From positions 1-64,000 of IMG/VR virus record IMGVR_UViG_3300015615_000629: DNA of 64,000 nt; one strand, 5' to 3'. Source of the stretch: a virus (taxonomy: Duplodnaviria; Heunggongvirae; Uroviricota; Caudoviricetes). Positions 30,802 through 60,762 of the stretch are shown here, piece by piece. Within the stretch, counting starts at the first letter, position 1. Every line of letters begins with the position of its first letter. A program made the position numbers and the translations under genes. The notes beneath the pieces are model-generated. The model made no database searches. It was not told the DNA's origin and saw only the letters and a program-made list of their open reading frames with translations.

Positions 30802-30894
30802 GGACCCCGACGGGACTCGAACCCGCATTACTTGTTTTTCACAAGCAACCCGAAGATTTAGAATCTTGGACCTTACCAATTAGGCTACGGGGTC
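30802..30894 (-). tRNA. amber suppressor tRNA (CUA) with long variable arm
   Basis: GACCCCG/CGGGGTC acceptor, D arm with GG, TT-CTA-AA loop, 9-bp variable stem, GCGGG-TTCGAGT-CCCGT T arm. Confidence 0.8.
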
Positions 30895-58036: not shown

Positions 58037-59629
58037 ATGAAGTTACAAATCGAACGTGGCTCAACTGCCGTTATTTTACATTGTTTTATCCAAGATGCTA
58101 CATCGTCGCTCGGTGCGGGCCTCACCGCCGCCGTCTATAATAGTTCAGGTATTGCTGGAAGGTGGATTAGAACAGGCAGTACAAACACAGCCTTAAGTTT
58201 CGCCGATATAAGTGCATTGGCAACATGGGCCGATCCTGGTTCTAATACCATTGGTTTTAAAGAAATAAGTGCTGCCAATATGCCTGGTTGGTATGAAATT
58301 CATTTACCGGATGCTTTTGTGGCATCAGCGGCTAGCGCGGCAGGCTATTCTTGTAGAAGCGTTGGCATCCAAGTTCGCGGCATTGCCAATATGATGCCAC
58401 TCAATATCGAAATCGAACTTAAGAACAACTTAAGCAACAGTGGTGTGGCCGCCGCAGCCGCAGCCGGAAGTTTGACTTTAGCATCATCAGCCGTGGCCAC
58501 AGACAGTTATTATGTTGGTCAAACAGTTAGAATTATTGGCGGAACGGGTGTTGGACAATCTAGAGTTATTACAGCATATGTTGGATCAACCAGAGTGGCA
58601 ACCGTAGGAACAAACTGGGCTACAACTCCAGATACAACTTCTGTTTATGAAGTCCTTAATATAAGAAATCCTTCGGTAGATTCTAGCGGTGCAGTGCTCG
58701 TTTCTAGCGGAACAGGTTCCAATCAAATAAGTTTAAGTTCTGGTGCAGTTATCGTCCAGAGCGGAACGGGAACCGGACAAGTTGACCTAAGCAGCGGACA
58801 AGTTAAAGTTCAAAATGGTACAAGTTCGGGACAAATTAAAGCCACTAGCGGTTATGTTGGTGTAAACTGGGGCGATGTTGCAAACCCAACAACTTCACTT
58901 GCTTTGACGGGAACAACTATAAGCACAAGCCAAGTAGCCGCGTCAGTAACAGGAAACGTTGGTGGAAATGTAACTGGAACCGTTGCATCTGTCGTCGGAG
59001 CGGTAGGATCGGTTACTGGAAATGTCGGAGGAAACGTCACTGGTTCTGTTGGTTCTGTTGTCGGAGCAGTCGGCTCTGTAACCGGTAACGTTGGCGGAAA
59101 CGTCACTGGTTCTGTTGGTTCTGTTGTTGGTGCCGTAGGATCGGTTACTGGAAATGTCGGCGGTAATGTAACCGGCTCAGTGGGTTCTGTTGCATCGGGC
59201 GGTATTGCAGCGGCTTCTATAGCGAGTTCTGCATTTACAGCAGCCAAATTTGCCGCAGATGCGATTGACTCTAATGCCGTTGCAAATAGTGCTGGAGATA
59301 AGATTGTTGGCAGAATTGCTAATATTTATTTTGCAGATATTGTCTTTACGAAATCAACAGACGATGAATACACAGTAACTTGGTTTAAAGATGGAAATAG
59401 AATTACTTCGGGCATTACTTCTCCAACAATAAATGTTGTAAAAAGATCAGATGGAAGCGATTTAGTTGCTTCTACCGCCATGACTCAAATTGGCAGTACC
59501 GCCAGTTACAAATACGACGAATCCAGCGACAAAACTTCTGCCGGTGAAGCATATTTGGTGATTGTTGGTGCAACTATTGATGCGGGCTCTAGGAGTTTCG
59601 CTAGATTGATTAGCCGCGACAGCAGCTAA
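58037..59629 (+). CDS. virion fibre-like protein with tandem repeats
   Basis: S/T/G/V/A-rich with GTG.GQ repeats; TAAATA upstream. Confidence 0.6.
   Translation: MKLQIERGSTAVILHCFIQDATSSLGAGLTAAVYNSSGIAGRWIRTGSTNTALSFADISALATWADPGSNTIGFKEISAANMPGWYEIHLPDAFVASAASAAGYSCRSVGIQVRGIANMMPLNIEIELKNNLSNSGVAAAAAAGSLTLASSAVATDSYYVGQTVRIIGGTGVGQSRVITAYVGSTRVATVGTNWATTPDTTSVYEVLNIRNPSVDSSGAVLVSSGTGSNQISLSSGAVIVQSGTGTGQVDLSSGQVKVQNGTSSGQIKATSGYVGVNWGDVANPTTSLALTGTTISTSQVAASVTGNVGGNVTGTVASVVGAVGSVTGNVGGNVTGSVGSVVGAVGSVTGNVGGNVTGSVGSVVGAVGSVTGNVGGNVTGSVGSVASGGIAAASIASSAFTAAKFAADAIDSNAVANSAGDKIVGRIANIYFADIVFTKSTDDEYTVTWFKDGNRITSGITSPTINVVKRSDGSDLVASTAMTQIGSTASYKYDESSDKTSAGEAYLVIVGATIDAGSRSFARLISRDSS
58943..59191 (+). 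repeat. 66-bp coding tandem repeat (SVTGNVGGNVTGSVGSVVGAVG) x ~3.8
   Basis: Near-identical protein units with synonymous DNA divergence. Confidence 0.85.
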
Positions 59630-60206
59630 AATATCTAAGAATTTGTTTTCCTCTCCGATCAATTTGCTTAAACTTAGTTTTAAAACTAATGGAAGAGATA
59701 CCTCCAAAAAGCCTTGCGTTACTATGAATTTCAGATAAAGACGCTAAAACTAACGTATAGGCGTCTTGTTTCGTCCAAACCTTACACATCGCATCAATTT
59801 CGGCCGACGAACATGTATGTAAACACATGTCCCAGCCGATTAAATCAGAAACAGTTTTGTCTCCTGTAATTTGAAAGTAAAGTTCTTTCGATGCTTCGGC
59901 ATGACCAGGAAAATGGACTTTGCCAAACTCATCTACCGTTTTTACTTTAGGTTTTCCACAGTCGTGGAATCGCAAGTAAGTGGAAATTGTTTCTAAAGAA
60001 TGTAAATTAGAAAGAATTTCCTGCTTATTTGAATTTAACCAATCGGGTAGTTTCCATTCCTTTTTCAACTCGCAATCATCTTTGAGATGGTAATACAAAT
60101 CGAAAAAGTATTCTTCAACGGAAACTCCGTGCTCGTAAACGGATTGTCCTTTAGTTTGTTCGCACATTAACATGTCACGAACGGTTTGGTCAAGCAGCTA
60201 TGTCAT
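59610..60206 (-). CDS. HD-domain protein with in-frame TAG at codon 3
   Basis: EHG..V, FHDCGK, HFPGHA; AAGGA-7nt-ATG ACA TAG in frame with the ORF-track start at 60173. Confidence 0.7.
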
Positions 60207-60552
60207 TTTTAATTCCTTTGTGTTTAAGAAGTTGAAACTTTTTGAAAAATTTACGACGCTCGCCATAAATGGCTTCGGTCGCAATTGCTGTAATTTTATG
60301 TCCGATGTCAGGCTCGAAAAAGCATTTATGCCTGATATCGGACTCAGCCAAATACTGAGAAACTTTATGTAATTTGGCTTCGTCTGTAACTGAGAGGATT
60401 ATTACAGACGGATGATCCCCATGATTGGGAATTAAAGAATGCCTGCCCGCTTCAATGGCAGCATGACAAGACTGAACAGAGATTTGTTCGGGAGATAAAT
60501 CTTTCCGAACAAAAATATAAATGTATCCGTGATCTACCTACGTGTGTTCCAC
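60190..60552 (-). CDS. peptidyl-tRNA hydrolase Pth2-like protein with in-frame TAG at 60538-60540
   Basis: YIFVRKDLSPEQISVQSCHAAIE...SVIILSV..E..L...EPDIG..ITAIA; no ATG or GTG after the TAG. Confidence 0.75.
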
Positions 60553-60762
60553 GTCTTCTGTTCCTTTTTGTAAGTCTTCGTTTGTTAACTGATCTAGCCA
60601 GCGGTCGTTTTCTGTTAAATGAATCAAGTTTTCTGTGTAAACTACAACCCAACCTGTAGAACATCCGGCAACCGAGTCTATGTGTATTGCCGGATGTTCT
60701 TTAATCCATTCGTCCAAACAAGAGAAACTTTTCCCTTTTATAAATTCTACTTTTTGAGCCAT
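60538..60762 (-). CDS. hypothetical protein (in frame with Pth2 across TAG)
   Basis: ORF track; ends ACG TAG. Confidence 0.5.
   Translation of the reverse strand: MAQKVEFIKGKSFSCLDEWIKEHPAIHIDSVAGCSTGWVVVYTENLIHLTENDRWLDQLTNEDLQKGTEDVEHT

Follow-up and report, generated by a model that had tools for sequence, protein, structure and literature searches.

Results

Two adjacent genes open with an in-frame amber codon

In the first 64,000 nucleotides (64 kb, hereafter the window) of the tailed-phage record IMGVR_UViG_3300015615_000629, which is 572,167 bp long and bounded by direct terminal repeats, two neighbouring genes encoding a Pth2-like protein and an HD-domain protein each carry an in-frame TAG a few codons after a start preceded by a Shine-Dalgarno (SD) sequence. 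We consider it likely that these genes form a suppressor-gated operon, in which the UAG is met after two to four codons and the output reflects the competition between a charged phage tRNA(CUA) and release factor 1 (RF1). The elements involved are the following:

60190..60552, minus strand: Pth2-like gene, with its GTG at 60550-60552, TAG as codon 5, a 115-codon domain at 60193-60537 and TGA at 60190-60192
60562-60566, minus strand: SD sequence AAGGA of the Pth2-like gene, 9 nucleotides (nt) before the GTG
60538-60540, minus strand: gating TAG of the Pth2-like gene, which doubles as the stop of an upstream 74-codon open reading frame (ORF)
59610..60206, minus strand: HD-domain gene, with its ATG at 60204-60206, TAG as codon 3, then 195 codons and TAA at 59610-59612
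60214-60218, minus strand: SD sequence AAGGA of the HD gene, 7 nt before the ATG
60198-60200, minus strand: gating TAG of the HD gene
30802-30894, minus strand: tRNA(CUA), found by ARAGORN; 49.7 bits against Rfam RF00005 (cut-off 29)

The Pth2-like gene opens as AAGGA, 9 nt, GTG, GAA, CAC, ACG, TAG, and the HD gene as AAGGA, 7 nt, ATG, ACA, TAG, the start of the latter overlapping the end of the former by 17 nt. An earlier, sequence-only reading of this DNA had located both SD-led starts, both TAGs and a tRNA(CUA) at 30802, and all of these were recovered at the same coordinates and with the same codons. Its observation that 115 open codons without ATG or GTG follow the TAG of the Pth2-like gene was also borne out, since no ATG, GTG or TTG occurs for 62 codons past this TAG and the first candidate start is the TTG at 60351, codon 63. 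The Thr codon that it had remarked before each TAG is indeed present in both genes of the window, but it is not kept in relatives. A 5-bp palindrome at 60540-60554 (ACGTG-GAACA-CACGT on the coding strand) spans the GTG start of the Pth2-like gene and adjoins the TAG; it might fold into a weak hairpin at start and gate, or be a matter of chance.

Two neighbouring reading frames touch this pair. The first lies upstream:

60541..60762, minus strand: 74-codon ORF with its ATG at 60760-60762, in the same frame as the Pth2-like gene and ending at the gating TAG at 60538

Read-through of this TAG from the upstream ORF would give a 190-amino-acid (aa) fusion with the Pth2-like protein. However, tBLASTn detected no homologue of the 74-codon ORF in any related locus; its shared frame was therefore treated as a coincidence, the fusion was considered unsupported, and the ORF is probably an unrelated upstream gene. 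On the other side, a 530-aa ORF on the plus strand (58037-59629) runs toward the HD gene, and the 3' ends of the two share 20 nt. Its product contains long Gly/Ser/Val-rich tandem repeats (GNVGGNVTGSVGSVVGAVGSVT...) and resembles a tail fibre.

The early stop is conserved in related phages

Thirteen named or uncultured phages from GenBank have an early in-frame stop at the beginning of the homologous gene or of an HD-Pth2 fusion. In these relatives the ATG stands one to four codons ahead of the TAG and the SD sequence 6-8 nt before the ATG, as in these openings:

Pth2-like gene, Yersinia phage fHe-Yen9-04 (LT960551): ATG TCT CAC TAG
Pth2-like gene, Pectobacterium phage CBB and Cronobacter phage GAP32: ATG GCA CAA TAG
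Pth2-like gene, LR756511: ATG ACT CAC TAG
Pth2-like gene, LR745206: ATG AAC AAT TAG
Pth2-like gene, Acinetobacter phage ME3: ATG ACT TAG
Pth2-like gene, Salmonella phage Arash (OQ632216): ATG CTG TAG
HD-first fusion, XacN1: ATG AAG TAG
HD-first fusion, Xoo-sp13: ATG AAG AAG TAG
HD-first fusion, RAS14: ATG AAG TAG
HD gene, RsoM2USA: ATG AAA TCG TAG
HD gene, LR745206: ATG AAT ACT TAG

The fused gene of Tenacibaculum phage pT24 is also opened by an early TAG, and the HD gene or fusion begins in this way in LR745206, XacN1, Xoo-sp13, RAS14, RsoM2USA and the loci L082, L098, L105, L107, L132, L171 and L172. The TAG occupies the same alignment position in the Yersinia, Pectobacterium and Cronobacter phages and in LR756511, and it lies exactly 10 codons before a conserved V-R-x-D motif in the window, Yen9-04, CBB and LR756511. 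An in-frame stop is, in other words, conserved at a homologous position across diverged genes.

We extended this comparison with a profile search of IMG/VR that yielded 54 loci (45 distinct). Of the 45, 34 have an early in-frame stop in the Pth2-like gene or fusion (32 TAG and 2 TGA), which answers the suggested check of its conservation at homologous loci. Among these 34 gates, 29 are clear-cut; in five, another start might be used or the stop has no ATG before it. Two further loci carry the early stop in the upstream HD gene and not in the Pth2-like gene. ATG-N-TAG is the most frequent form (23 times). The closest relative with both genes, L171, repeats the layout of the window, and its Pth2-like gene begins ATG ACT TAG GTA. 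The Pth2-like gene of Klebsiella phage RaK2 has a plain ATG start.

Two further features of the gated genes were noted. A second in-frame TAG is present at codon 43-45 in six loci, past invariant or near-invariant residues, and the HD gene of Yen9-04 has a TAG at codon 47; in CBB and GAP32 the HD match spans at least two annotated coding sequences at the place of Yen9-04 codon 47, where the stop codon itself was not read. In addition, a purine directly follows the gating stop in 33 of the 34 IMG/VR loci. In E. coli, according to reports by Bossi and by Miller and Albertini, both from 1983, a purine after the stop is said to favour suppression. A following C is the unfavourable context.

Stop codon and suppressor anticodon change together

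The 572-kb genome contains 40 tRNA genes, among which the tRNA(CUA) of the window is the sole one with this anticodon; one tRNA(UCA) is present at 286239-286310. The tRNA(CUA) is presumed to be the reader of both ambers. Among the 32 TAG-gated IMG/VR loci, 26 have a same-strand tRNA(CUA) no more than 10 kb away, often at a few hundred bases, and where a locus holds a single tRNA, this tRNA is the suppressor (13 of 14 loci). ARAGORN also detected a tRNA(CUA) in Yen9-04, CBB, GAP32, LR756511, ME3 and Arash. The tRNA of Arash (L078 1852-1926, OQ632216), annotated as tRNA-Phe, has the anticodon CTA according to ARAGORN and is located approximately 460 nt downstream of the amber-gated Pth2-like/HD pair. 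The closest relative of the window, G001 (IMG/VR, 527 kb), carries a tRNA(CUA) as well, 158 kb from its TAG-gated gene. Every whole genome checked that has a TAG gate has a tRNA(CUA), and no tRNA(CUA) was found by ARAGORN among the eight tRNAs of RaK2.

The two loci gated by TGA (L104 and L131) both have a neighbouring tRNA(UCA) and no CUA, and in L131 the Pth2-like and HD genes are both TGA-gated. The cognate suppressor thus resides in the same genome, and stop and anticodon change together. This covariation is the strongest evidence that the stops are read by a tRNA.

The suppressor tRNAs themselves are less uniform. DNA and pattern searches for relatives of the 93-nt tRNA(CUA) of the window returned T-arm fragments only, and the tRNA(CUA) of G001 does not align with it, which indicates that the suppressor tRNAs of this module are not all orthologous. 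In G001, the tRNA(CUA) predicted by ARAGORN adjoins a tRNA(UUA) (167265-167425, locus L168), and the two would constitute an amber and ochre suppressor pair.

The gated genes encode a Pth2-like protein and an HD-domain protein

The sequence of the Pth2-like protein alone scores 22.0 bits against the Pfam family PTH2 (PF01981; E=2e-4), below the cut-off of 23, and a profile of 36 family members matches solved Pth2 chains at E=1.5e-7 and 1.6e-6. Its AlphaFold model, with a predicted local distance difference test (pLDDT) score of 92.1, has the alpha/beta fold of Pth2, and its top 15 Foldseek matches in the Protein Data Bank (PDB) are all Pth2, with template modelling (TM) scores of 0.52-0.72. 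This fold is common to the proteins of PF01981, such as PDB entries 2zv3, 3erj, 1wn2 and 1xty and human Bit1 (1q7s). Residues V21, Q22, H25, A26 and E75 are invariant in the family, and R11, D13, I28, E29, L56, F73 and T83 nearly so. In contrast to canonical Pth2, the 36-sequence profile alignments place Q-Q where the matched chains have K-K or G-K; E75 and D77 fall near the canonical D-A-G. We take the Lys of the G-K motif to be catalytic, along with a downstream Asp, as in the Sulfolobus enzyme. Given that Q-Q stands in place of this Lys, we refer to the protein as Pth2-like, and its substrate, judging from these residues, may differ from that of canonical Pth2. By analogy with the fold, it is presumably a hydrolase that cleaves the ester between a peptide, or a blocked amino acid, and the 3' end of a tRNA. 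The previous description of a Pth2 with intact motifs is therefore supported by model and profile as regards the fold, but it has to be amended as regards the motifs, since the family is divergent and lacks the canonical GK Lys. The occurrence of PTH2 in jumbo phages was noted by Iyer et al. 2021, without mention of an amber or a tRNA (PMC7824862).

The HD protein matches phrog_14850 at E=7e-50 and the Pfam family HD (PF01966) at E=0.14. Its model (pLDDT 97) is all-helical, residues 2-14 forming helix 1. Among 32 homologues, H26, H81 and D82 are invariant and H102, H130 and H161 nearly so; the signature H...HD(C)GK(P) is invariant, and the copy in the window reads H-D-C-G-K-P. Both the H...HD metal-binding motif and the all-helical HD fold are accordingly present. 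The 17 best structural matches of the model are chains of 3WFO-3WFS (TM 0.57-0.61 over about 205 columns, probability 1.00, Foldseek E-values of 4.5e-3), entries deposited as 'tRNA processing enzyme' whose chains are named 'Poly A polymerase'; the HD profile matches the same entries weakly (E=0.011). Generic HD-fold proteins (PgpH, PhnZ, YfbR and the C-terminal domain of exopolyphosphatase) come next in the fold search. We presume that 3WFO-3WFS belong to the class II tRNA nucleotidyltransferases; the HD domain of one such enzyme, the CCA-adding enzyme of E. coli, heals 2',3'-cyclic phosphate ends. Unlike these proteins, the HD protein of the window is a stand-alone polypeptide of 198 aa without a nucleotidyltransferase head. 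Its initial designation as an HD protein agrees with fold and motif, and can be refined in that it is closest to a part of the 'tRNA processing enzyme' of 3WFO-3WFS.

The two domains are fused in several phages, in the order HD-Pth2 in Xanthomonas phages XacN1 and Xoo-sp13, Stenotrophomonas phage RAS14, L082 and L098, and in the order Pth2-HD in Tenacibaculum phage pT24 and two database proteins. These fusions suggest that the Pth2-like and HD domains act on one substrate, which we infer to be the tRNA 3' end. Based on its structural neighbours and on its fusion to a Pth2-like domain, the HD enzyme is predicted to act, probably, on tRNA 3' ends.

Suppression of the early stop as the best reading

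The co-occurrence of a same-strand tRNA, the covariation of stop and anticodon, and the second internal TAGs make synthesis only under an active suppressor the best reading of these data. The Pth2-like and HD genes would constitute a small operon, on which ribosomes would start normally at the SD-led codon and reach the UAG after two to four sense codons. Action of RF1 at this codon would release only a di- to tetrapeptide, and decoding by the phage tRNA(CUA), which we assume to be expressed and charged, would yield the full enzyme; the output would then be set by the charged suppressor tRNA relative to RF1. Under this scheme the enzymes would probably be made only when the suppressor tRNA overrides the stop. 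The stop falls in a poorly conserved N-terminal stretch, so the inserted amino acid probably matters little, and a failed attempt at such an early stop would cost almost nothing; both points fit a gate better than a coding position. Of the read-through switch that had been proposed, what stands is that the ambers are deliberate, conserved and tied to a phage suppressor.

Several observations weigh against suppression gating. An in-frame ATG is present at 60173-60175, 8 codons past the TAG of the HD gene, and the base after this TAG is a C. The tRNA(CUA) of the window is atypical: it is 93 nt long, its variable region contains 22 inserted nt (a long stem-loop in the ARAGORN drawing), its discriminator base is C and it has no encoded CCA. 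Moreover, it lies 30 kb from the genes and is 54-58% identical to the 73-76-nt suppressors of enterobacterial jumbo phages. Six TAG-gated IMG/VR loci, one of which is G001, have no suppressor within 10 kb. Conversely, four loci with a plain ATG start still adjoin a tRNA(CUA), indicating that the association of tRNA and gene is wider than the gating; no other convincing gated gene was found near the suppressor tRNAs of loci with an ungated Pth2-like gene. Finally, of the 566 ORFs in this genome that reach 150 codons, 91 end in TAG (16%). An efficient suppressor would be costly under such usage, so that suppression would have to be weak, timed or context-dependent.

An unlikely alternative is that the SD-led ATG or GTG, followed by one to three codons and TAG, is a minigene similar to those of lambda bar, acting as a regulatory upstream ORF, and that the enzymes start downstream without suppression, at ATT or GTA in the case of Pth2 and at the ATG at 60173 in the case of HD. 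The in-frame ATG of the HD gene is chosen by gene callers, and ATT, GTT or GTA directly follows the TAG in some relatives. There is also a thematic tie, since minigenes of two to four codons cause peptidyl-tRNA drop-off that Pth must clear, and here the product is Pth-like. However, no near-cognate start is conserved directly after the TAG, where CBB and GAP32 have AAT, XacN1 and RAS14 ACC, and Arash AAC. A start at Met12 of the HD protein would remove most of a confidently modelled, conserved helix: the residues encoded between the TAG and this Met form helix 1 in the model and are homologous to the N-terminal part of HD proteins that lack the gate. Two database HD proteins that begin at the internal Met are truncated calls of the amber-gated genes of L171 and L172. 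Re-initiation after a mini-ORF cannot bypass the additional TAGs past essential residues, which are found at codon 43-45 of six loci and at codon 47 of the Yen9-04 HD gene. This alternative also leaves unexplained the near-universal adjacent suppressor tRNA and the TGA gate exactly where the neighbouring tRNA is UCA.

A partial change of code, of the kind known from Lak and crAss-like phages, in which a block of genes would read TAG as an amino acid (Gln under code 15, for instance), appears very improbable. It would agree with the presence of a phage tRNA(CUA), as in recoded phages, with the Gln that L079 has at the column of the second TAG of other loci, and with the scarcity of TAG terminators in Yen9-04, where TAG closes 3 of the 284 ORFs that reach 150 codons and none of the 125 that reach 250. 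A reassigned stop, however, would hardly serve as a terminator any longer and would interrupt many genes in frame, and neither was observed in the genome studied here: the share of long ORFs that end with TAG argues for gene-specific gating and not for recoding, reading TAG as sense increased ORF coverage no more than reading TGA or TAA as sense, and TAG was not enriched among in-frame ORF junctions. General TAG recoding was rejected for this genome on ORF coverage, on in-frame junctions together with a codon-usage score, and on stop usage. The in-frame TAGs of relatives, furthermore, are found at the same N-terminal place and are not scattered.

The early-stop pattern is likewise confined to the Pth2-like and HD genes. 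A scan of the whole 572 kb for an SD sequence, a start, one to six codons, a stop and a long coding ORF, which had been suggested with the original proposal and was run with TGA and TAA as controls, gave 4 cases for TAG, 9 for TGA and 7 for TAA. Two of the four TAG cases are the Pth2-like and HD genes, the only ones without a near alternative ATG, and with these controls no genome-wide habit of early stops was seen. Together with the TAG at the same codon in many diverged relatives, this makes the pattern of the two genes more than a chance occurrence. In Yen9-04, where the TAG trinucleotide is not rare, the scarcity of amber terminators fits selection against them under an active suppressor, and suppression may be stronger in the lineage of this phage; a search of Yen9-04 for gated genes by codon-usage score was too noisy, at 32% G+C, to be used. 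Outside the window, an in-frame TAG at 230872-230874 (plus strand) of the same genome separates two copies of a repeat peptide (KSHIATELNV...), a possible read-through site.

Decay or error, that is, pseudogenes with nonsense mutations or TAGs introduced by assembly, is scarcely credible: GenBank annotation, also of cultured phages, does leave these genes uncalled, truncated or split, but, as the sequence-only reading had maintained, decay does not account for a stop that recurs at the same place in more than 40 independent assemblies, including finished genomes of cultured phages, ahead of intact domains with invariant residues and high-confidence folds.

Discussion

If the two genes are gated by suppression, the gate may serve several purposes. 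It is plausible that it couples the clean-up of tRNA ends or peptidyl-tRNA to the level of read-through or to a shortage of release factor, which is close to the sensor of termination status put forward initially; it is also plausible that the gate works as prfB-like feedback, the hydrolase limiting its own synthesis through its action on the acylated suppressor. A restriction of expression to cells or times in which the phage tRNA is present is possible. A more ambitious proposal is that the tRNA and the stop-gated genes act as a ratiometric sensor of termination or of tRNA acylation, such that a rescue regulon is made in proportion to termination failure, or is throttled by the hydrolase acting on the acylated suppressor. 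We regard this as tentative. Such a regulon would comprise the Pth2-like hydrolase, the HD enzyme and, possibly, a release factor (RF)-like gene behind an early TGA that tRNA(UCA) could read.

The RF-like gene (88251-88970, minus strand, locus L133) lies outside the window. It has a 229-aa open frame with an RF-1 domain (PF00472, 79.6 bits) and seems to be without the N-terminal domain 1 of release factors. It opens as AAGGAG, 6 nt, GTG, 9 codons, TGA (88938-88940), and then LTDLILEIKFGEGG... The homologue in LR756511 (55% identical) reads GTG, 13 codons, TAG and the same domain, with no start between, and that of LR756501 has a plain ATG. This gene may represent a third stop-gated translation gene, in a genome that also has a tRNA(UCA).

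The arrangement recalls known systems and differs from each of them. In prfB, which encodes RF2, an early in-frame UGA is escaped by a +1 frameshift, so that the gene senses its own product directly and reads out termination. Both cases have an early in-frame stop in the gene of a translation factor, and synthesis hinges on competition at the stop; here, in contrast, the frame would be unchanged, the escape would need a dedicated suppressor tRNA, and feedback by the product is hypothetical. The bar minigenes of lambda are stand-alone ORFs that are toxic in pth-defective hosts. They share with the gated genes a very short ORF (a start, one to three codons and a stop) thematically tied to peptidyl-tRNA hydrolase, but in the present case the stop belongs to the reading frame of the hydrolase domain, which follows it without interruption, and a suppressor tRNA matches it.

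Recoded phages (Lak, crAss-like and other gut phages, with TAG read as Gln under code 15 or TGA as Trp) have in-frame stops in 26-71% of their genes and have largely given up the recoded stop as a terminator, and suppression has been proposed in them as a control of expression, with no hydrolase mentioned (Borges et al., bioRxiv 10.1101/2021.08.26.457843). As in those phages, a phage tRNA(CUA) or tRNA(UCA) would serve in-frame stops while the host uses the standard code; the difference is that only a two-gene module is involved, with the stop at codon 3-5, in a genome where TAG still ends 16% of long ORFs. In XacN1, two tRNA(CUA) genes were described and no target genes could be identified (PMC5852040), and for RsoM2USA a tRNA(CUA) was reported and many targets, namely ordinary gene ends, were assumed (PMC8504454). 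In the literature on jumbo phages, suppressor tRNAs, Pth2 and in-frame stops that could be searched in one library, we found no published description of this gating. What is new is the gated HD partner with its fusions, the covariation of stop and anticodon (TGA with UCA) and the internal TAGs, as well as a genome where TAG is in free use as a terminator and the suppressor gene is remote from the gated pair. The module also provides the 'orphan' suppressor tRNAs of XacN1 with a candidate target.

Many jumbo phages with the standard code have annotated suppressor tRNAs, for which the Pth2-like/HD module offers a specific, conserved target that matches the anticodon. A named target makes the function of these tRNAs directly testable in cultured phage-host pairs, such as those of GAP32, CBB, ME3, Arash and XacN1, and the comparison corrects a systematic mis-annotation of these genes. 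The module would represent a natural, minimal switch for orthogonal translation, consisting of a single tRNA and one or two genes, and possibly an early or alternative state toward stop-codon reassignment. If the sensor proposal were true, the 'orphan' suppressor tRNAs of standard-code jumbo phages would have a dedicated regulatory job; in the variant throttled by the hydrolase, the system would be a tRNA-based analogue of prfB autoregulation.

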